Of a stretch of DNA of 11,080 nucleotides, positions 460-11,080 are shown piece after piece. The notes under the pieces are model-generated. The model did not search any database, was not told where the DNA came from, and saw only the letters and a list, made by a program, of their open reading frames with translations. Every line of letters begins with the position of its first letter. Position 1 is the stretch's first letter. The position numbers and the translations under genes were made by a program. Source of the DNA: a virus (lineage: Duplodnaviria; Heunggongvirae; Uroviricota; Caudoviricetes); IMG/VR virus record IMGVR_UViG_2778261641_000016. The stretch is one strand, 5' to 3'.

Positions 460-505
460 ATTCGTAATGCGAAGGTCGTAGGTTCGACTCCTATTATCGG
501 CACCA
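460..505 (+). pseudogene. 3' half of a tRNA-Thr gene (thrW-type, anticodon loop through CCA); attachment-site remnant
   Basis: ATTCGTAATGCGAAGGTCGTAGGTTCGACTCCTATTATCGGCACCA contains an anticodon loop TTCGTAA (CGT), T-arm GTAGG-TTCGACT-CCTAT, acceptor 3' strand TATCGGC, discriminator A and CCA. The matching 5' acceptor strand GCCGATA is absent upstream, so this is a fragment and not a functional tRNA. Identity to E. coli thrW is from memory. Confidence 0.65.
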
Positions 506-1085
506 TCAACAGAAAATCCCGTAAAAACAGCATTCTTTAGCATGTTTATCTAACGGTTTGTAACTTCTGTTCTAACGTCTGTTAGCACTGGTAAACGCCT
601 TTGCGTTGTATCGGCTCAAGTATTGTACAACGTACTGGCGGGTAGTTACCAGGCTCAAGCCCGAACAGCATTAGAAATTATGCCATCCCTTGAAGCTAAA
701 AGAGTTGCCGGACTCTCTAAACACATCACTTGAACCCTTAGCGATACGTTCCGCGCTTCGTGCGGCGCTCAATGATGCTACACGTCGAGATGACGTTGCA
801 GAAAATAAACAGGCGTAATGTTGGGAAGACTAACCGGATCGGGAAAGAATCCGGCTCTGCCACGGTTTCGATCACCGGAGTATAACGATCACCTGATAAG
901 AGAACGTGCTAAGGCTTTATCCTCCCTGCGAAGGGATTACACCCTGCGGAAGCGCTACGCGCCGCCTTTTCTTATGTGCCCAACACGGCACGTAATGGTC
1001 ATCCATTATCTGCACCATTGTAACTTTCGTTGTACTGCCTCTCTGATGTACGTTGAGCGCTGGCAGATTCAGCGGAGGGGATATC

Positions 1086-1247: not shown

Positions 1248-1263
1248 GGGGCTAATCAGCCCC
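1248..1263. terminator. GC hairpin between convergent genes (possible terminator)
   Basis: GGGGCT-AATC-AGCCCC perfect 6-bp stem immediately after the stop of the 1086..1244 gene. It overlaps the stop codon of the convergent minus-strand gene and has no adjacent U-tract, so function is uncertain. Confidence 0.3.
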
Positions 1264-2029
1264 TATTGCCCCTATGCTTTTTTTCGAATCTTGTCACAAC
1301 TCTATCCAACCATTTGGGTTCTTCTCTAAGATCTGAGTAGTAACAATTTTCTGGAACCGCGTTCCAGAAAGCAGTTATTGCGTTAGCAAAATCTACAAAT
1401 TGATCTTCTGAGACATGTAAATCGTCATGGTTAGGGACAATCTGCGTGCCTCTAACATCGGTGGGGTTTGGGTAATACTCAGGATGATCAACTGATAGTG
1501 TTTGATGTGCAGGGCCGTCTCCATGCTTGTATACGTTTACCACCAAGTTACAGGCTTTTATCCTTTCTCCGTATTCGGTTCCATTGATTGTGAGGCCAAT
1601 CCATTCGAGCAAATCAATTAGCTGATGGAAAGTTAAATTCCAGATCATGGGGGTAATCAATTCTCTTTCACACCAATTACTTAGCTCTTTGATAGTATGT
1701 TCTCTTAGTTTTTTATCAAACTGATGATACATACCTGCTGTCAACGCCAACAATACGGTATTTTGCATCTCCAGAAGCGACCGTACATAATAAATTCCCT
1801 CATGATAGGCTTGCTCGTAGGCCGCCATTGGGTCATCGTTATCTTGATCAAAATACTCAGCAGTAGTCTCCAAAAACTGTTGTTCTCTCTTCTCTGCTTC
1901 TTGTTCTAAATCACCAAACTGAGAGAGAAGCCGCCGCCTTGCCTCAGAAACGTAAAATTCATGGGGTTCAAGAAAGTATGGAAGATCGGCTCTGGCTAAC
2001 CAGAAGGTGACAAAATTTTCAGTAGACAT
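1256..2029 (-). CDS. hypothetical protein (257 aa), function unknown
   Basis: Long minus-strand ORF. Preferred start is the ATG at 2029 (MSTENFVTFW...), preceded by SD GAGGAA with 4-6 nt spacing; the track start at 2056 has no SD. No motif I can assign. Confidence 0.6.
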   Translation of the reverse strand: MSTENFVTFWLARADLPYFLEPHEFYVSEARRRLLSQFGDLEQEAEKREQQFLETTAEYFDQDNDDPMAAYEQAYHEGIYYVRSLLEMQNTVLLALTAGMYHQFDKKLREHTIKELSNWCERELITPMIWNLTFHQLIDLLEWIGLTINGTEYGERIKACNLVVNVYKHGDGPAHQTLSVDHPEYYPNPTDVRGTQIVPNHDDLHVSEDQFVDFANAITAFWNAVPENCYYSDLREEPKWLDRVVTRFEKKHRGNRG

Positions 2030-2192
2030 ACATTTCCTCAATGAAGCGATAGACATTTTGAGGTTATGTTATCTTCGGTGAGGGTTAAAATCCTCAACTG
2101 ATTCAATGGAATTGTCATTTGGTTTGAAATGCGGTAAAAGAATAAAATTCGTAATGTACGCTTTGCAGAAACAATCTGAAAATGAGGTGGTT

Positions 2193-2933: not shown

Positions 2934-3131
2934 TTACTCCTCTTCAAAGGTCATTGTGTAGCGGCATTGCTGCGACGGCCTGAGCGTCACTGTCTCCGTA
3001 AAGTTGGCGTTGGAATAAACGCAAATCTTCGCGTTGTCTGTCTCCTGTTCGTCACTGAGAATCAGGGTTATCTGTCCGGCATTCGCCAGGACTGGCATTA
3101 CTGTCAGCGTCAGCACAAGCAAGCGTTTCAT
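2934..3131 (-). CDS. small secreted protein with Sec-type signal peptide (65 aa)
   Basis: ATG at 3131 preceded by perfect SD AAGGAG with 6-nt spacing. N-terminus MKRLLVLTLTVMPVLANA has an n-h-c signal-peptide layout. The SD overlaps the stop of the upstream recombinase gene, suggesting co-transcription. Confidence 0.55.
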   Translation of the reverse strand: MKRLLVLTLTVMPVLANAGQITLILSDEQETDNAKICVYSNANFTETVTLRPSQQCRYTMTFEEE

Positions 3132-3141
3132 GCGTATCTCC

Positions 3142-3702
3142 TTATAAGTCCATCTCATTGATCACACGGCTAACGGCTTGCTTGTCTAAATCCAGATAGC
3201 GCCTGGTGTCAGTGATGTTGCTGTGATTAAGCACGGTCATAGCTAAAGCGATGTTGTTTGCTGAACGCTTGTAGATGGCATTCCCGCCAGCTTTGCGGAA
3301 GCTGTGAGCTGATACAGTGCCATGAATACCGATAGCTTTAGCGGCCTCTGCGATCTGCTTGCTCACTTCTTCGCGTCGTACAGGCGCTTGCTTGTTCATT
3401 GATCGGTTACGCTGGCTTCTGAACACATGCACATCATGCGGATACTCAGCACGGCGACGAGCAATCATCTGCACCACTGGAGCAGGGAGAGTGAGGGCTT
3501 TACGCTTCCCTGTCTTCTGTTCTTCTATGTCAATCTCACCGTTGATCACTTCGTCGAAGCGTAACGCTACGGCATCCCCCACACGCAGTACAGCGGCTTG
3601 CATCATTAACGTAACGTCAGCTATCAGGCTCTTGTTATGAGCGTTTAGCCACTCCCTGATCGCTTTGGCTTGCTGTTCGTCTAACACTACTGCTCTGTTC
3701 AA
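3142..3702 (-). CDS. small tyrosine recombinase (catalytic domain only; FimB/FimE-size integrase/invertase, or truncated integrase)
   Basis: Product carries the catalytic signature in order: Arg in VLRVGDAVALRFDEV, HxxR in HSFRK, and HSNITDTRRY near the C-terminus. Probable start TTG at 3702 after SD GGGAGGG; the track start at 3774 is also TTG but has no SD. There is no N-terminal arm/core-binding domain. Confidence 0.65.
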   Translation of the reverse strand: MNRAVVLDEQQAKAIREWLNAHNKSLIADVTLMMQAAVLRVGDAVALRFDEVINGEIDIEEQKTGKRKALTLPAPVVQMIARRRAEYPHDVHVFRSQRNRSMNKQAPVRREEVSKQIAEAAKAIGIHGTVSAHSFRKAGGNAIYKRSANNIALAMTVLNHSNITDTRRYLDLDKQAVSRVINEMDL

Positions 3703-3799
3703 TTTACCCTCCCATAAAGACACACATCTAAACTCAACGAAACAAACAATATGATCAATTTCAGTAAGTTGCAATATAAATGATCAAAAATCGAACTGT

Positions 3800-4009
3800 C
3801 TTGTGTGTGGTAAATGGCGCGATTGCGTCCAGTGCTTAACGACCTCCAGGGCCGCCTCCAGATCGAAAATTTCTTCTCCTCTAAATATCTTGAACAAAAT
3901 CATGATGTTGGCATTTATAAACATGTGTTTGAACATTGCCAAATCCTCAACTCTGCACGAAGAACAGCGGCAACAGCGGAACATCACACTACCAATGCTT
4001 GTGTGTGGT
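3800..4009. repeat. pair of 12-bp direct repeats CTTGTGTGTGGT (3800-3811 and 3998-4009)
   Basis: Exact 12-mer present twice, 198 bp apart, directly upstream of the recombinase gene. Confidence 0.4.
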
Positions 4010-4080
4010 TATTGTCTATCTCATTGATTTAAATCTGATAAATGTAAGGTTGTTAGGCGAGGGCGGGGCTAACCTGCCTG

Positions 4081-4109
4081 TATGCACAAATTATGCGGAG
4101 TTTATGCAC
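4081..4109 (+). repeat. three TATGC(A/G) direct repeats phased at 11 bp (iteron-like)
   Basis: TATGCAC at 4081, TATGCGG at 4092, TATGCAC at 4103, with exact helical-turn spacing, directly after a GC box GGCGAGGGCGGGG (4056-4068). Confidence 0.4.
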
Positions 4110-4460
4110 TTGAAACTGAGTGTGTAATGAAATGATTAGAATGCTAATCAATTGGTGGATTTTGGCATGAAAAAGAAACATCGTTTCATTTTAGAAAACT
4201 CGTTCAGCACATTGCACCTGTCATGAAACTCCTCATTGTGGACAATGATCGCTGTGAGCCGCATGGCGCAAGGCTTTACGCAAAGTGAGTGATGGTTACT
4301 ATCTTGCTGACTATGGCAACTTTACCCATGTAACAACGGCAATCTTTACCTGTCATTTAAGATAGGCTTAGCTATGATTATCGTGTTGTTTTGATAGGAA
4401 TAACCTCTCGTTACTCTTAGTGTTGTTGCATGGATGAATCAGAGTTAGTTGGGGGCGTTA

Positions 4461-4541
4461 TACATCAAAATGATGTATAGATGCATGGGATACGCATCAA
4501 ATTGATGTATGGATCGGCAAACTACACATCAAATTGATGTT
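4461..4541. promoter_or_regulatory. array of three inverted-repeat sites CATCA-N3-TGATG phased at 32 bp (operator-like)
   Basis: tACATCAAAATGATGTa (centre 4469), cGCATCAAATTGATGTa (centre 4501), cACATCAAATTGATGTt (centre 4533). Half-site copies recur at the downstream promoters. Confidence 0.5.
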
Positions 4542-5091
4542 CTATACAAAGAGATTCTAAAAGCGATCTCTAAAAGAGAGCTTTTAGAAGATCTTGTTAA
4601 AGATTCGCTTTGCTGGCGCGTATCGCCTGGCAAGTGACCTGATTCGCCTTTGGGGGCTACTCGGTCAGCCGCTCACGACGCAGCGTAGCGCATCTGTCTG
4701 TGATTGTGCCAGGGCTTCGCCCTCGTGAAACGAGGCACAGAAGCTATGCGCCGTGTGCGCAATGTCTTTCAGCATAACTTCTGCCTGTCTTCCATGCTCC
4801 GCATTCATCCATGCAAAGTTAGCCCACGGCTAAGGATTCACTGGTCGCTGATGGCTCCAGTTCATCCAGCCTCAATCCAATACCATCACCTACTATCCTG
4901 ATAACTAACGTTATCCCTCAGTAGTTGTGCTATTGGTTTCGGGAGTAAGTGCCAGAGGGCGGCGGTAACGCAAACGGAACGCCCCAGACGCGCTGAGAGC
5001 GAATTTGAGAGGATAGGGAGGGGATTGCAACTCTCAGGCTTTCAAACCTGTTAGAAAGCGATAGACCGCGTTTTATGATGACATGAATGAA

Positions 5092-5120
5092 TTGATCACA
5101 ACGTGGAAATGCGCTATAAT
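5092..5120 (+). promoter_or_regulatory. sigma70-like promoter (TTGATC - 17 bp - TATAAT)
   Basis: -35 TTGATC at 5092-5097, 17-nt spacer, perfect -10 TATAAT at 5115-5120; points into the downstream operon. Confidence 0.5.
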
Positions 5121-5142
5121 TTGAAAGGGATTTAAATAAGTG

Positions 5143-5171
5143 TTGACATTTAAATCATTTCATGTTAAAGT
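5143..5171 (+). promoter_or_regulatory. second tandem sigma70-like promoter (TTGACA - 17 bp - TAAAGT with TG extension)
   Basis: Perfect -35 TTGACA at 5143-5148, 17-nt spacer, -10 TAAAGT at 5166-5171 preceded by TGt. The half-site AAATGATGTA (5172-5181) sits at the predicted transcription start. Confidence 0.45.
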
Positions 5172-5266
5172 AAATGATGTAGGGTAATGAAAGCATTCAT
5201 CCCGTCCTCATCTCAGGCATCCAGCCTAACGCAAACAATCCAACTTACACCGCACTATCAGGCAAC

Positions 5267-5515
5267 GTGATTAACGTTCTCCCTGGATGGTGTTTCTGTG
5301 TTTCTAACGCAAGGAGAACCAAAATTAAGTATTTTAATCCAGAACTTGTCTTCGAGGCTTTAAAGGCCGGAAGCCAGACGCGAAATGCAATAAACAGCCA
5401 GCGAGCAGCCGCACAACGGCAAGGATATTTCGAACACGCTGAAAGATTGCGTAAAGGAATCGAACTTTACGATCAATGGAAAGCTGAACAGGCTGAAACC
5501 ACCACCAACGAATAA
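5267..5515 (+). CDS. hypothetical protein; start codon uncertain
   Basis: Open frame in track from GTG 5267 to TAA 5513-5515. A strong SD AAGGAGAA (5311-5318) lies inside it but no in-frame ATG/GTG/TTG follows within 15 nt; only ATT at 5325. Confidence 0.35.
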   Translation: MINVLPGWCFCVSNARRTKIKYFNPELVFEALKAGSQTRNAINSQRAAAQRQGYFEHAERLRKGIELYDQWKAEQAETTTNE

Positions 5516-5533
5516 ACCAGAAGGAGAAACCAA

Positions 5534-5710
5534 ATGAGCGAAATCCAGAAGAAGAAACCAGCCGGAACATTCGTAAAACTGCCGGATGAAGTGTTTAGTA
5601 CTTTGTTCAAAGAGGCGCGAGCGAGAGGCGTAACAGTGCAGGAGATGTTAATTGACGCTGCAACCACACTTTCCACATCAATTAAGAACGGAGAACGTTC
5701 TACCAAATAA
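5534..5710 (+). CDS. small DNA-binding protein, ribbon-helix-helix-like (58 aa)
   Basis: ATG 5534 is 7 nt after perfect SD AAGGAG (5521-5526). Product MSEIQKKKPAGTFVKLPDEVFSTLFKEARARGVTVQEMLIDAA... has the beta-strand/helix/helix pattern of Arc/CopG-type proteins. Not in the ORF track because it is under 60 aa. Confidence 0.55.
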   Translation: MSEIQKKKPAGTFVKLPDEVFSTLFKEARARGVTVQEMLIDAATTLSTSIKNGERSTK

Positions 5711-5724
5711 GGATACACCCTAAC

Positions 5725-6465
5725 ATGACTGACATTATAAACAGTAAGGCTTTTAGTTTCACCAACACCGAAGACGCATTTAACGAATGCACCAGGATCA
5801 CCAATCTTAAAACAGGCGTAACAGAGTCCCTGTCTCCTGCTGATAAGCAGTTTTACGTCAGAATGCGCCATCGTTATTATCGCTTTGCGATAGAGTTGGG
5901 CGGTACTTATTACGATGACATTGATCAACTTGGTGCAAGTATTGGTGTCAGCTCGGCTACGGCAACACGTATTGTTGCAAAGTTGAAGAAAATCGGACTG
6001 ATCGCCAGTAATAAGCCAAAGCGCTCTAACCAATGGACTATAACGCCACTCACGCCGCAAAACTTCACCTTTGAACGTGATCGTAATGCGATGGAACGTG
6101 ATTCCGCGCCGGAATGGGTAGATTGTCTGAAACATCCCGTGTTTGGCAAAGCTAAAGAAGACGTAGCGCCAGAGGAAGAAAAACAGCAGTCAGTGCCAGA
6201 AGAGGCCAAAGCAGATCCGAAGCCGGAGAAGCCAAAGAAAATGCCTACGAAGAAACCCGCCTCCATTCCAGCTAAAGATATTAAGATAGAGCCAGTTAAT
6301 TTAAACTTTCTTGAGGGTTATCGGGATGAATGGGAGAATCCTGAAAAGAATCTACCAGTTTCACAACATCCGAAAATCAGATGGCTACTTATTAACGGAT
6401 ACCTGGACACAGAGAAGAATCCAAAACTTAAACCAATCTACGAGGAAATAGAACATTTATGCTGA
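5725..6465 (+). CDS. winged-helix DNA-binding protein with long Pro/Lys/Glu-rich linker (possible phage O-type replication initiator or regulator)
   Basis: 246-aa ORF. The N-terminal part has an HTH-like segment (DIDQLGASIGVSSATATRIVAKLKKIGLIAS), followed by a low-complexity linker (EEEKQQSVPEEAKADPKPEKPKKMPTKKPASIP). The domain layout resembles replisome-organiser proteins; assignment is from pattern only. Confidence 0.6.
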   Translation: MTDIINSKAFSFTNTEDAFNECTRITNLKTGVTESLSPADKQFYVRMRHRYYRFAIELGGTYYDDIDQLGASIGVSSATATRIVAKLKKIGLIASNKPKRSNQWTITPLTPQNFTFERDRNAMERDSAPEWVDCLKHPVFGKAKEDVAPEEEKQQSVPEEAKADPKPEKPKKMPTKKPASIPAKDIKIEPVNLNFLEGYRDEWENPEKNLPVSQHPKIRWLLINGYLDTEKNPKLKPIYEEIEHLC

Positions 6466-6920
6466 AAACGGTTATACCCAAACAATACAACGAACGTGAT
6501 CTTAACATCATCCATCTTGCCAGTTTATTAAATCCAGAAGTTGAAAGAGGTGTTGCATTCGAACAAGCGCAAGAACTTGTAGATGTTTACGCTGAGCGAG
6601 GTGAATCAAGTTACGCTAATGCTCTTGTTACGCTATTCAATGCAGCGATGAAGCCACCGAAAGAGATAGAATGTAAAATGACATCCCCACATCTTCACGA
6701 TAAGAATCTGTCTCCTTCGGAACGTCTGGTATTAATGCACCTCGAATCACTGCCATCATTAACAAATGTGAAACAGGAGTCAATAGCGATAGTGTTGGGG
6801 ATAAGTGTGGCAACTGTATCCAGTGCGATTCGCAAGCTTCGCCGCAATGATTATCTAACTACTACGTTAATCAAACCTGGTCGCGGTAAAGGATGCGACA
6901 TTACACTTACGACTAAATAA
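6459..6920 (+). CDS. hypothetical protein with C-terminal winged-helix DNA-binding motif (153 aa)
   Basis: Start overlaps the upstream stop (ATGCTGA), implying translational coupling. C-terminal region SPSERLVLMHLESL...ESIAIVLGISVATVSSAIRKLRRNDYL is HTH-like. Confidence 0.55.
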   Translation: MLKTVIPKQYNERDLNIIHLASLLNPEVERGVAFEQAQELVDVYAERGESSYANALVTLFNAAMKPPKEIECKMTSPHLHDKNLSPSERLVLMHLESLPSLTNVKQESIAIVLGISVATVSSAIRKLRRNDYLTTTLIKPGRGKGCDITLTTK

Positions 6921-7024
6921 CAACAATCGGGAAACTTTTATGATTACTGCTTTATGGTGGTTCACCATATTCTATGGCGTTTACGTTATAACCAGACAAG
7001 GAGTTTCCCCTCTACGAGGAATGA

Positions 7025-7408
7025 ATGGGACGAAAAGAACGAAGTAACCTTGTTAGAATCGAAAAAGCCACACGCATCAGCAAACGTAAATACACCTCTT
7101 CTCTACAAGACCTCGCACGAGAGTCTATTCCTGGTGAGATGGTGACAACTATTAAAGAATATCCCGCAGTAGTACCAAATGGATTAGAGTTTGAACTATT
7201 GCAGGATGTTCTATCGTCAACGGATAACGTTTATTACAAACCACGACGCAGACGCGAATATATTATAGATAGTAGCCATCTCAAGAAATGGCAAATAGCA
7301 GGATTTGAACATTACGCCGATTATATTGGGTATTGTCAAACCTGGGGGCTATCCCAGCACACACAAGAGTTTGATATTCTCTTTGACGACAAGGAAAACA
7401 ATGAATAA
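7025..7408 (+). CDS. hypothetical protein (127 aa), basic N-terminus
   Basis: ATG 7025 is 5 nt after GAGG (7016-7019). Its stop overlaps the next start (ATGAATAA). Confidence 0.5.
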   Translation: MGRKERSNLVRIEKATRISKRKYTSSLQDLARESIPGEMVTTIKEYPAVVPNGLEFELLQDVLSSTDNVYYKPRRRREYIIDSSHLKKWQIAGFEHYADYIGYCQTWGLSQHTQEFDILFDDKENNE

Positions 7409-7739
7409 TAAAACTATGGACACAGTGAACACCCTAATTAACTCTTTCCACGACAACTGGCATTTACCAACCTTACAGCTTGTTAATGCAGCGTGGCGTG
7501 AGAGAACGCCCTCCGCGCTTCTGGAAGCGGTGCAATACACTGAACAGGCAATCACTGCCCTTGAACATCTGCAAACGTCTGTAGCTCGTTTGGTGCAGCG
7601 TGACGGCAGTTCGATCACACCAGAAGAAGCGTGGCGTGTAGCTAATGACCTTGAGGAGCTTGCTTGCTCTCTGCAATACATCACCGTTGAACTCGGAGAG
7701 CTTTCCATCCAGATCGCGGAAGAATGCGCCATAACATAA
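7401..7739 (+). CDS. hypothetical protein (112 aa)
   Basis: ATG 7401 is 5 nt after AAGGA (7391-7395), in frame with track ORF 7305..7739. The longer track start has no SD. Stop TAA 7737-7739. Confidence 0.55.
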   Translation: MNNKTMDTVNTLINSFHDNWHLPTLQLVNAAWRERTPSALLEAVQYTEQAITALEHLQTSVARLVQRDGSSITPEEAWRVANDLEELACSLQYITVELGELSIQIAEECAIT

Positions 7740-7754
7740 AAGTTACTAAATGTC

Positions 7755-7783
7755 TTGACATTATGTGCTATATGTGTCATAAT
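7755..7783 (+). promoter_or_regulatory. near-consensus sigma70 promoter (TTGACA - 17 bp - TGtCATAAT)
   Basis: Perfect -35 TTGACA at 7755-7760, 17-nt spacer, extended -10 TGtCATAAT (7775-7783). It starts 16 bp after the stop of the upstream operon. Confidence 0.6.
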
Positions 7784-7789
7784 GAGTTA

Positions 7790-8334
7790 TAGGGTAAGTA
7801 TTCGAATCACTTCACCCTCGTATGTCAATACGCACTCCTTGAGAATGCCGTTCCCATAGCGGCATTCTCTCCCTCTGAATGCTATTTCTGAAAGTGTTGG
7901 TTCTTTGTCTTGTTTGTTCCGAAGGAATGCGCGGGATGTAATATCTCGTTGTGTTGGTATTGCATCGCAATCACCGCGCATCTCCGACTTTTTCAGAAAG
8001 GGCATTCGCTCTTTGCTCATTCATTCCGTTAGGATGAATGTAGTCAGACTGAATAAACGCCGTCAGCGGTAGTTACGTTCAGGCTGGCAATCTCTTATTA
8101 CTATTCCAGTGGTGATATTGAGATTCCATTCCCACTTCTCGCCATGACAGAAGGGCTTCTGTTTTGAAGTGGGAGCAATGACGGGCGATCCTACTTCTGT
8201 TATTCGTAACAGTTGCGCCCTTCATTTTTTCAAGAAGCCATTCTTTAACATCATAATCCTCCGAAACGAAAATGATTTTAACAGAATGCTTTCTAACAAG
8301 GGCATATTCTCCAGGGGCTTAATCGCCCCTTTTT
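7790..8334 (+). ncRNA. candidate ~545-nt non-coding leader transcript (promoter to intrinsic terminator); speculative
   Basis: No plus-strand ORF of 60 aa or more between the promoter and the terminator. Contains a perfect 10-bp stem hairpin (7841-7850 / 7860-7869). Only short ORFs without credible SD. Confidence 0.3.
8313..8334 (+). terminator. rho-independent terminator
   Basis: GGGGC-TTAATC-GCCCC stem-loop (8314-8329) followed directly by TTTTT (8330-8334). Confidence 0.6.
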
Positions 8335-8405
8335 AACAATCTGCATGTAACACTTCCGTTATCAATGGAAGGATAAACGCAGTTATAACGCGAAGGAACA
8401 ACACA

Positions 8406-8621
8406 ATGTTCTTAATAAACAATCGCGACCGAATCCTAAAATACAAATCCGAAGTGATTCAAGTTAATCCTGAGTTAATAGCTAAAGTGGCTGAAATGGC
8501 AGGATGTACCGTTGAAGAAATAGAAAAAGCTGTAGACCAGTATTTCCCTTCTGAGGACACACCTCAACTTAGTATGCAGGAACGGATCGCAATCAAATCC
8601 AAGGAAATCAAACAACAATGA
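8406..8621 (+). CDS. small hypothetical protein (71 aa), first gene of the head operon
   Basis: ATG 8406 is 7 nt after SD GAAGGAA. Its stop overlaps the start of the next gene (ATGA), implying translational coupling. Confidence 0.55.
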   Translation: MFLINNRDRILKYKSEVIQVNPELIAKVAEMAGCTVEEIEKAVDQYFPSEDTPQLSMQERIAIKSKEIKQQ

Positions 8622-8977
8622 TTGTAGACCTAACCGAACTTTTCCCAATTCGTAAGAGTTTCACTGACGTATTGAGCTACGCCACTGATTCTTTTGCAGT
8701 CGTAGAAGGCCGTGTTTTCGACCTGCCAGCAGATATTGAATGCGGCGATGTTATCGGCGCTGATGGCGCTCTATACACCTCCGGCGATGATGCCTTTGTG
8801 GTGGTAAGTGATTTCGTGAGTGCTGGCGACGGTAAAACCGTGAATGTCCTACGTGCGCCTAATGTTGGTAGCTTCGTAGCACTGAAAGCCGACAACCTGC
8901 ACGCAGCTAATCACGCCGCAGCTATCACCACGCTCGAATCCAAAGGGTTCGTATGCCGTCCATTCTTCACCTCTTAA
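8618..8977 (+). CDS. probable phage head decoration protein (119 aa)
   Basis: Gly/Ala/Asp/Val-rich small protein encoded immediately upstream of the major capsid gene, the same position as gpD before gpE in lambda-like heads. Assignment rests on position and composition, not on recognised sequence identity. Confidence 0.5.
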   Translation: MIVDLTELFPIRKSFTDVLSYATDSFAVVEGRVFDLPADIECGDVIGADGALYTSGDDAFVVVSDFVSAGDGKTVNVLRAPNVGSFVALKADNLHAANHAAAITTLESKGFVCRPFFTS

Positions 8978-8993
8978 TCAAGGAAGATAAATA

Positions 8994-10025
8994 ATGAGTA
9001 AAATCGCAATTGGGCGTGAGATGGTCGATTTAGCGCCAATCTTCCAGGCTCTGCCGGAACGTAACTATCTTATGAATGCCCTCGACCTATTCGACGGGGT
9101 AGGTGTTCAGAATCCGAAAGTGGTGGTGACACAGCTTCTGGATGATAACTACAGCCTGTTTAACACCCCGCAGAGCCGTTATTCATCAAACCACGACACT
9201 ACCGCGCGTCAGAATGGCAAAGAATACCTTATCGAGATTCCTTGGTTTGCAAGGGAAGATGAGTTTAAACCTGTAGACGTACAAGGCCGCAGAGTGCAGG
9301 GAACGGACTACGAGCAAACCGTTACCGACCTGTACACCGAATACACTGGCAAACATAAGATTGCTTATCTGCGTACCCGTGAGTCTTACCTGGCCCGTGC
9401 TCTGTTCAAAGGTGAAGTTTATACGCCTGCAACTGATGACCTACTGATCTCTTATGCTGAACTGTTCGGTGTGGTGCCAATGACAGCCAGCGTGAGCACA
9501 GCGACAGCGGCACAGGATTTTGATGCGATCTTAGACAAAGTTCAGGCTGCCGCAGGTGGATTGGCTGGACAGATTGAACGAGTGATCGTATTCGCTAAAC
9601 CTGCTGCATTTAGCCAGATTCGCTTCTCTGACAGTATGTCTAAGGCGTTCCAGTATGTAGCGCCATATGACGACCGTAACCTATTCTACCAGCGTCACGA
9701 GCTTCTCCCTGGTGTTAGTACGTTTAGCCTACCTGGTGCGCCTATCGACATTGTTAAAGTGACAGATCCGCTGATCCTTGCACAGATGCCAGATGATGCT
9801 GACATGGTGGCGGTTCCGGTGTTCAGTAAAGGCACAAATGCTTATCAGAACATCTACGGCGCTGCCTCTGGTAACTTTGCGCTGATCGATGCTGCACCTG
9901 CTGAATACTACTCTTGGGGCTACCTGAGCGAGCGCGGCGATGCTTACCACGTTATGCACGAAAACAGCGCATTACCAGTGAACCATGCGTTAGGTATGCA
10001 GGTGAAGATCACCATCACTGCTTAA
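8994..10025 (+). CDS. phage major capsid protein, lambda gpE-like (343 aa)
   Basis: ATG 8994 after AAGGAAG. Length matches the 341-aa lambda E protein, and local blocks (ALFKGEVY, VIVFAKP...F) resemble E-family blocks as I recall them. It follows the decoration-like gene. Confidence 0.75.
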   Translation: MSKIAIGREMVDLAPIFQALPERNYLMNALDLFDGVGVQNPKVVVTQLLDDNYSLFNTPQSRYSSNHDTTARQNGKEYLIEIPWFAREDEFKPVDVQGRRVQGTDYEQTVTDLYTEYTGKHKIAYLRTRESYLARALFKGEVYTPATDDLLISYAELFGVVPMTASVSTATAAQDFDAILDKVQAAAGGLAGQIERVIVFAKPAAFSQIRFSDSMSKAFQYVAPYDDRNLFYQRHELLPGVSTFSLPGAPIDIVKVTDPLILAQMPDDADMVAVPVFSKGTNAYQNIYGAASGNFALIDAAPAEYYSWGYLSERGDAYHVMHENSALPVNHALGMQVKITITA

Positions 10026-10088
10026 TGAGCAAGCGGGAGCCTGACCCGCTGGAAATAATCAGGCTATTGAATAGGGCGTGTGAACGTT

Positions 10089-10121
10089 GGGAACATCTCC
10101 CCAGTGTTCCCGCCCTTTTTT
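10089..10121 (+). terminator. probable intrinsic terminator after the capsid gene
   Basis: GGGAACA-(9 nt loop)-TGTTCCC stem (10089-10111), then GCCC and TTTTTT (10116-10121). Confidence 0.45.
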
Positions 10122-10144: not shown

Positions 10145-10342
10145 ATGCAAGTGATTGTAAAAAGCGCGGGGCTTCACCTCGCCGTAAATGCTGAAACAGC
10201 AGAAGAGTTATTAAATCTGGCGGGAGTGTGTCGTGTGCTTGAAATAGATCACGGTCATCTACGTCAGTTATTACATCGTGGGCGTAGTGTATCAGATGCA
10301 CTTAATTATCTGGTGAGTAAAAAAGGCGGTGGCGATGCTTGA
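10145..10342 (+). CDS. hypothetical protein (65 aa)
   Basis: ATG 10145 after strong SD GAGGAAAG. Its stop overlaps the start region of the next ORF. Confidence 0.5.
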   Translation: MQVIVKSAGLHLAVNAETAEELLNLAGVCRVLEIDHGHLRQLLHRGRSVSDALNYLVSKKGGGDA

Positions 10343-10799
10343 GATTAATACAAGTAAGATCGTCAACACCGTAACTTTCACCGTTGACAAAGGGAGTATT
10401 GCAGAGGCTAAGGCCGCAGCGGATAACCTTCAAAAGCACTTCCAGAAAATAGCCGATCCCAAGATTCGCTTCCAGGATCTGAAGCAGCGCAGACAGAAAG
10501 CCCGTCAACAAGCCGATGATGCACGTTTTAATGATAAGCCTCGTGATACGAAGGAAATGAAAGCCCAACGTGCGGCGGAGAAGCAGAAAGCCAGGGATGA
10601 AAAGGCCAATCTGAAAGCGAAGCAGCAGCTACAGAAGCGCCAAGAGACAGCCGAGCTTAAACTTCGCCATGCAGGGCTACAAGTGTCAGGAATTAAAGGT
10701 AAATACGGGCTTGATCCTAAATCTCAGTATGAAGCGTTACGTTATATTCATCAGCAAAGCGAAGAGTTTGCGAAAAGGGTATTAACTTTCGCAGCCTGA
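10329..10799 (+). CDS. hypothetical protein, highly charged Lys/Arg/Glu/Gln-rich central region (156 aa)
   Basis: Track ORF overlapping the upstream stop (start ATG 10329 or 10335). Its last ~8 codons are read out of frame from invertase-homologous DNA. Confidence 0.5.
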   Translation: MAMLEINTSKIVNTVTFTVDKGSIAEAKAAADNLQKHFQKIADPKIRFQDLKQRRQKARQQADDARFNDKPRDTKEMKAQRAAEKQKARDEKANLKAKQQLQKRQETAELKLRHAGLQVSGIKGKYGLDPKSQYEALRYIHQQSEEFAKRVLTFAA

Positions 10800-11080
10800 C
10801 CGACAGCATAGATACGTCTTCACCAATGGGACGCTTTTTCTTCCATGTCATGGGCGCACTTGCAGAAATGGAAAGGGAGCTGATAGTCGAACGTACCAGG
10901 GCGGGATTGGCTGCGGCTCGTGAAGAAGGGCGAATAGGTGGGCGTCGATCAAAGCTAACTGATGAACAGTGGGCGCAGGCAGGCAGGTTGATTGCAGCAG
11001 GTGAATCACGACAGCGTGTGGCATTAATTTACGATGTTGGGATATCGACGCTATATAAAAAATTTCCGGCAACCAGGTAA
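10772..11080 (+). pseudogene. serine DNA invertase (Pin/Gin/Hin family) C-terminal fragment, lacking the catalytic N-terminus; runs off the window end
   Basis: Translation EKGINFRSLTDSIDTSSPMGRFFFHVMGALAEMERELIVERTRAGLAAAREEGRIGGRRSKLTDEQWAQAGRLIAAGESRQRVALIYDVGISTLYKKFPATR closely matches the C-terminal half of e14 Pin as I remember it. The frame is closed by TGA at 10730-10732 and no serine-nucleophile N-terminal domain exists in any frame upstream. Confidence 0.65.

Follow-up and report, generated by a model that had tools for sequence, protein, structure and literature searches.

The three head genes at positions 8406-10025 of IMGVR_UViG_2778261641_000016 are probably the capsid-shell module of a 12-14 kb integrative element, one of an enterobacterial family that behaves like a phage satellite. 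The window, by which we mean the whole 11,080-nucleotide stretch analysed, carries a very recent deletion derivative of this island, of which near-identical intact copies exist. No description of such islands was found in the literature searched, which covers few subscription journals, and the family is apparently widespread but undescribed. The first-pass annotation had read the head genes as a decayed prophage or a helper-dependent, satellite-like unit, and that reading is partly supported.

The head module

The module consists of three plus-strand ORFs, encoding a 71-aa protein (8406-8621), a 119-aa head decoration protein of gpD-like fold (8618-8977) and a 343-aa major capsid protein of the lambda-E/HK97 type (8994-10025). 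Its description as an orphan module stands: all three head genes are confirmed, and none of the scanned window ORFs matched a portal, terminase or protease in Pfam or PHROGs. The claim that the genes are translationally coupled holds for the first two, which overlap in ATGA, but not for the third, which starts 16 nt past the second, close but non-overlapping, and is preceded by an AAGGAAG Shine-Dalgarno sequence.

Structure prediction, which had been proposed as a check, returned an HK97 fold for the 343-aa product and a decoration fold for the 119-aa product. The capsid protein matches Pfam Phage_cap_E (PF03864) over profile positions 2-328 of 329 (E 8.4e-15; 55.1 bits against a gathering cut-off of 22.9 bits) and has no delta domain. 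Foldseek searches with its AlphaFold model (pLDDT 79.5) gave E values of 1e-17 to 1e-8 against PhiTE, ICP1, Bas63, Sf14 and lambda gpE, the best solved HK97-fold match being PhiTE at 7e-17; encapsulin shells lie far down the list. The closest homologue in any phage record is 27% identical, and none of these records holds a close one. Had the module been decaying neutrally, disrupted capsid genes would be expected in relatives; the capsid ORF measures 342-357 aa in 46 of 49 loci.

The 119-aa product is predicted to be a gpD-like head decoration protein from its fold and from the position of its gene directly upstream of the capsid gene. By sequence it has no match in Pfam, the PHROG decoration families or NCBIfam, HMMs of its family had no significant match among the ORFs of the Phapecoctavirus ESCO5 and of three further phages, and its comparison by hhalign with the ESCO5 decoration protein returned a probability of 8%. 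Its homology to decoration proteins is thus one of fold.

The 71-aa protein likewise has no family match in Pfam, PHROGs or NCBIfam, and belongs to a conserved family (dN/dS 0.13). It is a candidate mini-scaffold, in that it ends in a C-terminal tail like that of gp255, the ESCO5 scaffold protein, whose C-terminus ranks first of 821 ESCO5 ORFs for similarity to the C-termini of the 71-aa family. The likeness spans about 18 residues and the motif was noticed before being tested, making the hypothesis post hoc and the comparison suggestive only.

A putative terminator-gated leader

Directly before the head genes lies a structured leader of roughly 550 nt, conserved at the nucleotide level in alignments (7755-8345 with its promoter, plus strand). 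The promoter is sigma-70-like (7755-7783, plus strand) and the best promoter match of the region, at 11/12 positions with a TG. RNAalifold yields 85 pairs for the leader, 32 of them with compensatory double changes, and two hairpins, at about 8181-8232 and 8313-8334, are terminator-like; in relatives, another complementary stem takes the place of the stem of the second. Transcription through the leader and a regulatory role for it are putative. Downstream of the capsid gene, an intrinsic terminator (10088-10121, plus strand) comprises a 9-bp stem followed by a T-run. The module is accordingly bracketed by terminators as first described, by the hairpin at 8313-8334 upstream and that at 10088-10121 downstream. 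Rfam searches of the whole window gave nothing at the gathering threshold, and there are no tRNA genes within it.

A family of tRNA-integrated islands

A survey of homologous loci found the same island gene order in about 50 loci of at least eight genera, with capsid protein identities of 41-100%. Carriers include Escherichia, Enterobacter, Klebsiella, Citrobacter, Cronobacter, Kluyvera and Pantoea. By a rough estimate, 5-10% of complete E. coli genomes carry a member of the family, as do many strains of Enterobacter, Klebsiella, Citrobacter, Cronobacter and Pantoea. In 24 loci the element is bounded by direct repeats and measures 12.0-14.2 kb. The repeats are the 3' ends of tRNA-Thr, tRNA-Gly(ccc) or tRNA-Leu(caa) genes, the site of the window copy being thrW. 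A variable accessory region occupies the left end of the elements and a DUF6538-type tyrosine integrase the far end, and a replication-initiator-like module is also carried. The conserved late block runs from the 71-aa gene through the decoration, major capsid and 65-aa genes to a tape measure gene. Nearly all members encode a tape measure protein, the E. coli lineage a Dit-like protein and only the Pantoea lineage an adaptor. In one lineage a Kiwa defence system stands in place of the tape measure gene, and the latter is therefore not indispensable for persistence.

No member possesses portal, terminase, protease, sheath, tube or lysis genes, as surveyed through precomputed Pfam matches for the called genes of loci L002-L008 and L057-L060. 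Within those elements the Pfam matches are to integrases, Phage_cap_E, Dam, DUF6945, HTH_36 (weak), DEAD (faint), a PhiTE-type adaptor and Kiwa. No packaging signal or small-terminase-like gene was identified in the elements. With capsid-shell and tape measure genes of its own and neither portal nor terminase, the island most likely depends on a helper phage for its spread. The family shows the general hallmarks of satellites, namely its own integrase and att sites, an incomplete set of virion genes, restricted to those of the shell and tape measure type, and a small, narrow size. The satellite-like alternative raised in the first-pass annotation fits a discrete 12-14 kb family that integrates at tRNA genes, with conserved synteny, purifying selection and no portal, terminase or protease in any member. 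Free or circular element genomes were not found: the IMG/VR matches are 19-76 kb long and were called as prophage regions, and metagenome and Logan contigs of 13.7 kb either end within the att repeat or run across it.

It is conceivable that the island is an ordinary prophage remnant, left by neutral loss of terminase, portal and protease from a lambdoid or myovirus prophage. The window copy is indeed deleted, IS insertions and partial copies of the element occur in some genomes, and strain MS6192 has pseudogenised terminase genes at a distance of about 19 kb. Those pseudogenes are, however, beyond two integrases and part of another remnant. In an ordinary prophage, terminase, portal and protease genes would adjoin the decoration and capsid genes; neither the window nor any intact relative has them there. 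One and the same reduced set of genes, in one order and within one size range, is found in different genera whose synonymous sites are saturated with change, and each element has its own att repeats and integrase. Frames remain intact across the family despite this saturation, and the capsid, decoration and tape measure genes give dN/dS values of 0.1-0.16 wherever dS is measurable. Neutral loss is thus largely refuted for the family and has only a very small probability; of the suggestion of a recently decayed prophage, what survives is the recent decay of the window copy alone.

The family might instead be an autonomous miniature phage, its portal, terminase and tail functions hidden among hypothetical proteins, given that roughly half of its genes have no detectable family. 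We consider this highly improbable. Outside the tape measure (about 615 aa) and the integrase (about 400 aa), core proteins are at most 353 aa and most are shorter than 160 aa, too small for a large terminase or portal; furthermore, genes for sheath, tube, baseplate wedge and lysis are missing, though the tape measure is of the contractile-tail type.

A shell without a portal also invites the idea of domestication as an encapsulin-like compartment or a gene-transfer-agent-like particle that benefits the host. Formally, an encapsulin is encoded by just such portal-less HK97-fold shell genes, encapsulins do appear low in the structural match list, and the 71-aa protein could be a cargo or tag peptide. 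Nevertheless, the closest structures are phage capsids with gpD-like decoration, the shell genes are linked to the tape measure and other tail genes, and the elements are mobile and patchily distributed, with their own integrases, at three different tRNA sites. The domesticated option of the earlier reading finds scant favour in this distribution, and we hold it to be very unlikely.

Other genes of the element in the window

The left boundary of the island is an attL core formed by the 3' 47 nt of tRNA-Thr (thrW; 460-506, plus strand), read from the sequence by its T-arm and acceptor end. The core is repeated in L001 at 12129-12175, 25891-25910 and 39410-39455, and locus L055 has an intact thrW at the left end of a related element. 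Upstream of attL, positions 1-459 are the end of a different prophage with a tail fibre assembly gene (Caudo_TAP match, 61-225).

The variable accessory region (1256-2875) holds a 266-aa ORF of unknown function (1256-2056, minus strand; PHROG 19541) and two small plus-strand ORFs (2106-2420 and 2396-2875). Other members have other genes at this position, among them a type IV restriction-like HNH protein in L005, and defence cargo in the family comprises this type of protein and Kiwa. PADLOC returned one type IV restriction-like match for ten accessory-region proteins and nothing for the cargo of the window copy itself.

Next to this region, a 65-aa protein with an apparent signal peptide (2934-3131, minus strand; PHROG 4641) is a homologue of ESCO5 gp105. 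The HMM of its family, 66 aa in length elsewhere, matches gp105 at 2.4e-19; the signal peptide is putative, having been read by eye from the sequence. It is followed by a short tyrosine recombinase of 186 aa with a catalytic domain only (3142-3702, minus strand; Pfam Phage_integrase, 3.9e-16). We rejected its interpretation as an integrase fragment since it is conserved at the same place in most lineages. No inversion was seen beside this FimB/E-sized recombinase that would indicate an invertible switch, all loci being colinear.

A 1.5-kb gene-free stretch (3775-5266) contains three tandem 32-nt iteron-like repeats (4446-4541), each with a ACATCAAnnTGATGT palindrome. Between L001 and the window there is at this place a single 32-nt gap, exactly one repeat length. 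The repeats are a candidate origin or operator. A rightward operon then starts with two small conserved genes encoding 82 and 58 aa (5267-5710, plus strand), of families f7 and f8 kept across loci; these are likely regulators, judging from their position, and have no family matches. The next genes (5725-6920, plus strand) encode a 246-aa DUF6945/winged-helix protein and a 153-aa HTH_36 protein. The former scores 2.5e-6 and 27.9 bits against Pfam DUF6945, just below the 28-bit gathering cut-off, the latter 1.6e-8 against HTH_36, and PHROG 8102, 'replication initiation protein', matches at 5e-10. The upstream genes first taken for regulators thus look more like replication initiators; some members have a 485-519-aa protein in their place. 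Two further conserved plus-strand genes of unknown function, encoding 127 aa (7025-7408) and 112 aa (7401-7739), belong to families f9 and f10 and have no family matches.

The tape measure gene and the deletion

Downstream of the head module, the genes initially considered unrelated are a conserved 65-aa gene (10145-10342, plus strand) and, coupled translationally to it by an 8-nt overlap, the 5' quarter of the tape measure gene (10335-10774, plus strand; about 147 codons); the invertase fragment reported beyond them is present. At a deletion junction the tape measure gene is cut at 10774 and joined to a pin-type DNA invertase gene, of which only the 3' part is present (10772-11080, plus strand; Resolvase and HTH_7 matches), the frame running on to a stop at 10799. 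The invertase part lies outside the element and is 100% identical to L001 33156-33464; it comes from a neighbouring prophage remnant, joined by a 10.7-kb deletion. None of the 5,426 complete E. coli genomes contains the junction, and the window copy differs from L014 by 2 mismatches in 9.7 kb. Compared with near-identical intact copies, it keeps attL, but the remaining three quarters of the tape measure gene, at its 3' end, are gone, as are two small genes, the integrase and attR. The intact protein in L001 is 614 aa long, of which the window retains residues 1 to about 147. These losses leave the copy crippled, and its head module, though intact, is probably stranded.

Links to virulent myoviruses

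The intact tape measure protein matches PHROG 16051, the Stephanstirmvirinae tape measure family, over its full length and at both termini (2.5e-98). By BLASTP, the L001 protein is 32% identical to ESCO5 gp244 (E 8e-88; residues 1-614 against 1-662), and matches occur in 138 phage records, nearly all of them Stephanstirmvirinae. The Dit-like protein of the E. coli lineage is 57% identical to gp243, encoded directly after the ESCO5 tape measure gene, and the Pantoea adaptor matches gp251 at 7e-24. For the tape measure, Dit-like, adaptor and small, putatively secreted proteins, the closest phage homologues are those of virulent Stephanstirmvirinae myoviruses of roughly 150 kb. The element order of scaffold-like, decoration and capsid genes, then tape measure and Dit-like genes, is colinear with ESCO5. 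The HMM of the capsid family matches the ESCO5 major head protein at 7.6e-13, and the capsid protein obtains slightly higher scores with Vequintavirus and a Curvibacter phage than with ESCO5; its kinship with the capsid proteins of this wider group of myoviruses is distant. The relatives are rV5-, phAPEC8- and PhiTE-type myoviruses, and the lambdoid framing of the module falls away. At the DNA level, a search for similarity to ESCO5, such as a pac or cos site or shared promoters, gave only chance-level matches over the genome up to its last 9 kb. Identities to the proteins of the candidate helper are only 32-57%, and this, together with the better capsid score elsewhere, implies that the true helper may be an unsequenced relative of the candidate phages.

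We propose that, when a Stephanstirmvirinae-type phage infects, the element would excise and replicate, and transcription would pass through the terminator-gated leader. Its own shell proteins would then build small capsids on the portal of the helper, whose terminase would fill them with element DNA, and the filled capsids would join helper-built tails that carry the tape measure of the element. The narrow size range of the elements would reflect the capacity of the small capsid. In its fullest form, the proposal is of an unrecognised enterobacterial satellite family that parasitises virulent phAPEC8/phi92-type myoviruses, with its own decorated shell on a stolen portal, its own tail-internal proteins and leader-gated late genes, as the first satellites with tail components and the first intermediate between PICIs and cf-PICIs; we would give this whole combination an even chance. 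If true, it offers a natural test of a foreign capsid protein assembling on the portal of another phage, and raises the question of why a parasite should bring its own tape measure protein.

The same homologies could be read differently, with the island serving interference or defence: its diverged structural proteins would be dominant-negative decoys that poison myovirus assembly, and it would not travel in virions but move rarely by other means. In the alignment, both ends of the phage protein, N-terminal and C-terminal, are conserved in the tape measure, which would suit co-assembly into phage tails; recognised defence genes occur in members, a small, putatively secreted protein is common to element and phage, and no packaging function was found. 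Conversely, only the formation of closed capsids would give a purpose to a full shell set with a decoration protein, and with the best phage capsid match being just 27% identical, co-assembly becomes less likely. Element size is also held to 12-14.2 kb despite variable cargo, as for a headful limit rather than a defence island. We regard this reading as unlikely; interference and satellite transfer are, in any case, not mutually exclusive.

Comparison with known satellites

Like the family, cf-PICIs such as EcCIEDL933 are small islands of narrow size range with an integrase, a replication module and their own HK97-fold capsid protein, taking the rest of the virion from a helper, as is proposed for the family from its genes alone. 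They differ in encoding a complete set for head and packaging, made up of protease, portal, head-tail connectors, TerS, TerL and HNH, and in lacking tail genes, whereas the family possesses only shell proteins (scaffold-like, decoration and a Phage_cap_E capsid protein with gpD-like decoration) plus tail-internal proteins. Of the portal, prohead protease, connector or adaptor, TerS and TerL that define cf-PICIs, only an adaptor is found, in the Pantoea lineage, and the tape measure and Dit-like proteins are at odds with the rule of no tail genes. Current classes divide satellites into whole-capsid thieves (P4, PICI, PLE) and makers of a full capsid and packaging set that steal tails only (cf-PICI). 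An element with shell proteins and a tape measure breaks the rules of both, including the use of tail genes as an exclusion criterion; in SatelliteFinder, tail genes are forbidden components (PMC10085698). The tape measure gene of the family is, moreover, mislabelled 'TolA'. Together, the exclusion and the mislabel would explain how a family present in hundreds of E. coli genomes stayed unnoticed.

Acinetobacter Phanie and Streptomyces MiniFlayer resemble the family in having small genomes and capsid proteins of their own, and in relying on a helper, a myovirus or a siphovirus, for tail function. Phanie has a linear, phi29-like replicon, a packaging system of its own and a short tail, and MiniFlayer is not known to integrate into the host chromosome. 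The encapsidation machinery of MiniFlayer is encoded by the satellite itself (PMC10690885). Unlike the family, neither of the two is an island that sits at a tRNA gene and lacks portal and terminase genes.

For the 71-aa protein there is a possible parallel in its putative role with CpmB of SaPIs, given that its C-terminus resembles that of a phage scaffold, in this case of ESCO5. CpmB is a small helical protein of about 70 aa whose C-terminus mimics the coat-binding tail of the helper scaffold and which directs small capsids. It differs in acting on the coat of the helper, where the family has its own, and there is no sequence homology between CpmB and the 71-aa protein.

PLE of Vibrio cholerae and PICMIs are satellites of virulent phages, the PLE helper ICP1 having a genome of about 126 kb (PMC12772148). 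If the helper of the family is a Stephanstirmvirinae myovirus, its lifestyle would be that of PLE, induced by infection and not by prophage induction. PLE differs in using the ICP1 coat protein with an external scaffold, TcaP, PICMIs have no capsid genes, and neither PLE nor PICMIs encode a capsid or tape measure protein of their own. A satellite of large virulent myoviruses that are under development for therapy would, if real, bear on phage therapy escape and on gene transfer.

P4-like satellites are, like the family, enterobacterial, 11-13 kb long and tRNA-integrated, with cargo hotspots. P4 controls its gene expression through RNA and transcription termination, and the structured leader of the family, with its terminator-like hairpins, resembles this. 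P4 differs in reshaping the helper capsid protein with an external scaffold, Sid, in encoding Psu, Delta and an alpha primase, and in having no capsid or tail genes; Pfam and PHROG searches of the element gave no matches to Psu, Delta, Sid or alpha primase. We also considered Sp1/Sp2 of strain Sakai, at thrW, as the same element and rejected it, these being a lambda-like remnant and a P4-like element. A separate P4-like element adjoins the Pantoea member of the family.

The head module and the history of its copy in the window

Three ORFs called on the same strand make up the head module: a 71-aa gene (8406-8621), a 119-aa decoration gene (8618-8977) and a 343-aa capsid gene (8994-10025). The 343-aa protein covers the entire Pfam Phage_cap_E profile (E 8.4e-15, 55 bits against a cut-off of 22.9), and its AlphaFold model (pLDDT 79.5) matches solved HK97-fold capsid proteins, the best being those of PhiTE, ICP1, Bas63, Sf14, YSD1 and lambda gpE, which answers the capsid half of the structural check proposed in the first-pass annotation. 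The description given there of an orphan module bracketed by terminators also holds, as no portal, terminase or protease was found among the window ORFs scanned, a hairpin with a T-run (8313-8334) precedes the head genes and a terminator (10088-10121) lies 3' of the capsid gene. Of the three genes proposed to be translationally coupled, the 71-aa and 119-aa ORFs overlap by ATGA, and the capsid gene, closely spaced rather than overlapping, starts 16 nt farther on and is preceded by a Shine-Dalgarno sequence.

Between 460 and 10774 the window differs from an intact copy in E. coli MS6192 by 1 mismatch and one 32-nt gap, and it differs from an IMG/VR contig by 2 mismatches in 9,689 nt. Read from the sequence, 460-506 is the 3' 47 nt of the tRNA-Thr gene thrW, and to its left lies the end of a different, lambdoid prophage (1-459, a Caudo_TAP tail fibre assembly gene); the element thus begins at about 507, and its left 10.3 kb lie in the window. 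At 10774 the sequence continues into a pin-type invertase gene situated 10.7 kb farther along in MS6192, a junction present in none of the 5,426 complete E. coli genomes checked. Through this deletion a 614-aa gene lost its 3' three quarters, and two small genes, the gene for a tyrosine integrase of the DUF6538 type and the right-hand att copy disappeared altogether; the 3' part of the invertase gene (10772-11080) is now fused to what was a tape measure gene. The two alignments overlap by 3 nt at the junction, and thrW here hosts a tandem array of mobile elements, this one among them.

A conserved family of integrative elements

The capsid protein has homologues, 41-100% identical to it, in Escherichia, Enterobacter, Klebsiella, Citrobacter, Cronobacter, Kluyvera, Buttiauxella, Scandinavium, Dryocola, Pantoea and Erwinia. 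The survey of synteny that had been suggested, taken across about 50 fetched loci, revealed a constant order that includes the upstream operon. A variable accessory region is followed by minus-strand genes for a small secreted-looking protein and a 186-210-aa tyrosine recombinase, a long stretch without genes, two small genes with a replication-initiator-like module, two or three further small genes and a conserved non-coding leader; then come the 71-aa, decoration, capsid, 62-65-aa and ~615-aa genes, and lastly small genes and a minus-strand integrase gene. The boundaries are direct repeats containing the 3' end of tRNA-Thr, tRNA-Gly(ccc) or tRNA-Leu(caa). Element length is 12.0-14.2 kb (24 loci), one locus reaching 16.9 kb because its 615-aa gene carries an insertion. 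No product of a conserved core gene exceeds 353 aa, the 615-aa protein and integrase excepted. The capsid ORF measures 342-357 aa in 46 of 49 loci, the exceptions being two at contig ends and one over-long ORF (locus L051). Most comparisons show saturated dS, and in those that allow its measurement the capsid, decoration and 615-aa genes have dN/dS values of 0.10-0.16. Among the precomputed Pfam assignments for the called genes of the loci, none within an element denotes a portal, terminase, protease, sheath, tube or lysis function. In E. coli, a related lineage has matches in 544 of 5,426 complete genomes, 284 of which match at least 80% of the head-to-tape-measure block; in STEC 2013C-4225 it is inserted cleanly at thrW. 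A number of copies carry IS insertions or are truncated, damage that is usual among mobile elements.

The family is size-constrained, integrative and under purifying selection, carrying a shell, a tape measure and a replication module with no other virion function. We are highly confident that it constitutes a discrete mobile element carrying these genes. Recent decay, one of the readings offered earlier, describes the window copy with its deletion at 10774 but not the family, since the element is discrete, mobile and conserved, which a decaying prophage does not fit. The satellite-like alternative is the one that comparative genomics backs.

Leader and putative replication region

The best match to a sigma-70-like promoter in the region, itself conserved, lies at 7755-7783, and the ~550 nt 3' of it (to 8345) show stronger nucleotide conservation than the genes on either side. 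Terminator-like hairpins occur in this leader at about 8181-8232 and 8313-8334, and in relatives the stems of both are exchanged for other complementary sequences. From ten sequences RNAalifold predicts a structure of 85 pairs, of which 32 show compensatory double changes. Given the exchanged stems and predicted pairing, termination within the structured leader seems to gate the head genes, and a helper factor could relieve it. The stretch 7755-8345 matches nothing in Rfam and could represent a regulatory RNA or leader of a new type.

A 1.5-kb gene-free stretch (3775-5266) holds three tandem 32-nt iteron-like repeats, each with a palindrome (4446-4541), and it is here that MS6192 and the window differ by a gap of one repeat length. 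Further non-coding blocks at 3880-3947, 4129-4288, 4599-4634 and 4804-5020 are conserved in divergent elements. Together with the DUF6945/HTH_36 proteins, which match PHROG 'replication initiation', the repeats suggest that the element replicates autonomously.

Tail genes and phage relatives

The downstream genes had been regarded as unrelated; instead, they include a tape measure gene. At its full 614 aa, the protein hits PHROG 16051, 'tail length tape measure protein' (2.5e-98), and aligns end to end with gp244 of Phapecoctavirus ESCO5, a virulent Stephanstirmvirinae myovirus (32% identity, E 8e-88), the termini being conserved and the centre 48 residues shorter in the element protein. The position of gp244 after sheath, tube and chaperone genes identifies it as a genuine tape measure protein. 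Using tblastn, homologues were found in 138 phage records, nearly all ~150-kb Stephanstirmvirinae, and bacterial genomes contain more than 1,600 clusters. The best 120 bacterial matches measure 604-621 aa, and the annotation pipeline has called many of them 'cell envelope integrity protein TolA', a name borne in many RefSeq genomes by the MS6192 gene (locus L001, 22036-23880) and its homologues. The naming appears to be a systematic annotation error, for which the charged coiled-coil region is probably responsible.

Further links to ESCO5 exist. The capsid family HMM has a sole match among ESCO5 ORFs, the major head protein (7.6e-13), that of the small minus-strand protein family matches gp105 (2.4e-19), and the Pantoea lineage carries a PhiTE-type adaptor matching gp251 (7e-24). 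In the E. coli lineage a Dit_like protein (Pfam 3e-29; 14791-15504 in the thrW locus L055) is encoded directly after the tape measure gene and is 57% identical to gp243, whose gene directly follows the ESCO5 tape measure gene. In the same locus, ~3 kb (5422-8362) has no annotated gene. The order scaffold, decoration, capsid, then tape measure and Dit-like, is that of ESCO5 minus the intervening neck, sheath and tube genes. As to the scaffold, the 71-aa family ends in 18-20 residues that look like the C-terminus of the ESCO5 scaffold, which came first among 821 ESCO5 ORFs in a scan without gaps; this likeness is no more than suggestive, the segment being short and the idea having arisen after the sequences were viewed.

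The capsid protein scores 83-88 bits against Vequintavirus and Curvibacter phage capsids, from which it is about equally distant, and 67.5 against that of ESCO5. No close homologue occurs in phage records (best 27% identity); hence the shell genes are specific to the elements, and the case for a helper leans mainly on the tail-side genes. Two UNVERIFIED records classified as Vequintavirinae, 'Campylobacter phage C12/C14' (MG065635, MG065653), look like coliphage-type genomes under a misleading name.

The conserved gene order across genera, own att repeats and integrase, low dN/dS and phage-linked tail genes together make it very improbable that these are ordinary prophage remnants, and they weigh as heavily against a domesticated or encapsulin-like shell and an autonomous mini-phage, each of which we consider equally remote.

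A proposed satellite lifestyle

We infer that the element is a phage satellite. A phAPEC8/phi92-like myovirus, or a relative not yet sequenced, would on infecting the host trigger excision, replication and late-gene expression of the element. A small decorated capsid made of element proteins would then form around the portal of the helper, whose terminase would fill it with element DNA, and the filled capsid would be joined to helper tails built on the satellite's tape measure protein. Helper-dependent encapsidation seems to us reasonably probable; that Stephanstirmvirinae are the helpers is a tentative proposal, somewhat short of an even chance. P4 has an 11.6 kb genome and a T=4 small capsid (10.1101/2025.06.18.659913), and an element of 12-14 kb would fit small P4-like capsids. 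Possible uses of its own tape measure are control of DNA delivery, evasion of entry-blocking immunity or sabotage of helper tails. The main alternative, a pure interference or defence island deploying structural proteins as decoys, is made unlikely by the constrained size and by the presence of a decoration gene and a full set of shell genes.

In mode, a satellite of this kind most resembles the cf-PICIs, but it lacks their defining portal, protease, connectors and terminases and, unlike them, has tail genes. P4's Psu, Delta, Sid and alpha primase are absent, and PLE and PICMI have no capsid genes. A December 2025 commentary gives P4, PICIs, cf-PICIs, PLEs and new I55 elements as the known kinds (PMC12772148). 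The family was not found described in the literature searched, coverage of which is incomplete, so its novelty is unproven; we regard it as a putative new satellite family whose list of parts is without precedent.

Accessory and minus-strand genes

On the minus strand (2934-3702), the gene for a FimB/E-sized 186-aa tyrosine recombinase overlaps that of the 65-aa secreted-looking gp105 homologue. No DNA inversion was seen near the recombinase gene among the loci, and we would guess at a role for the 65-aa protein in superinfection exclusion. In a Pantoea-like lineage, Kiwa (KwaA/KwaB) fills the tape measure slot on the opposite strand (9566-11108 in L057, 9541-11083 in L058), indicating that the tape measure gene is not strictly required for persistence; there, the replication module is exchanged for a 519-aa protein. 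The left end of the element seems to be a cargo or defence hotspot, and the accessory region of an Enterobacter member (L005, 2311-3036) encodes an HNH protein with a PADLOC match to type IV methyl-directed restriction enzymes (6e-23).
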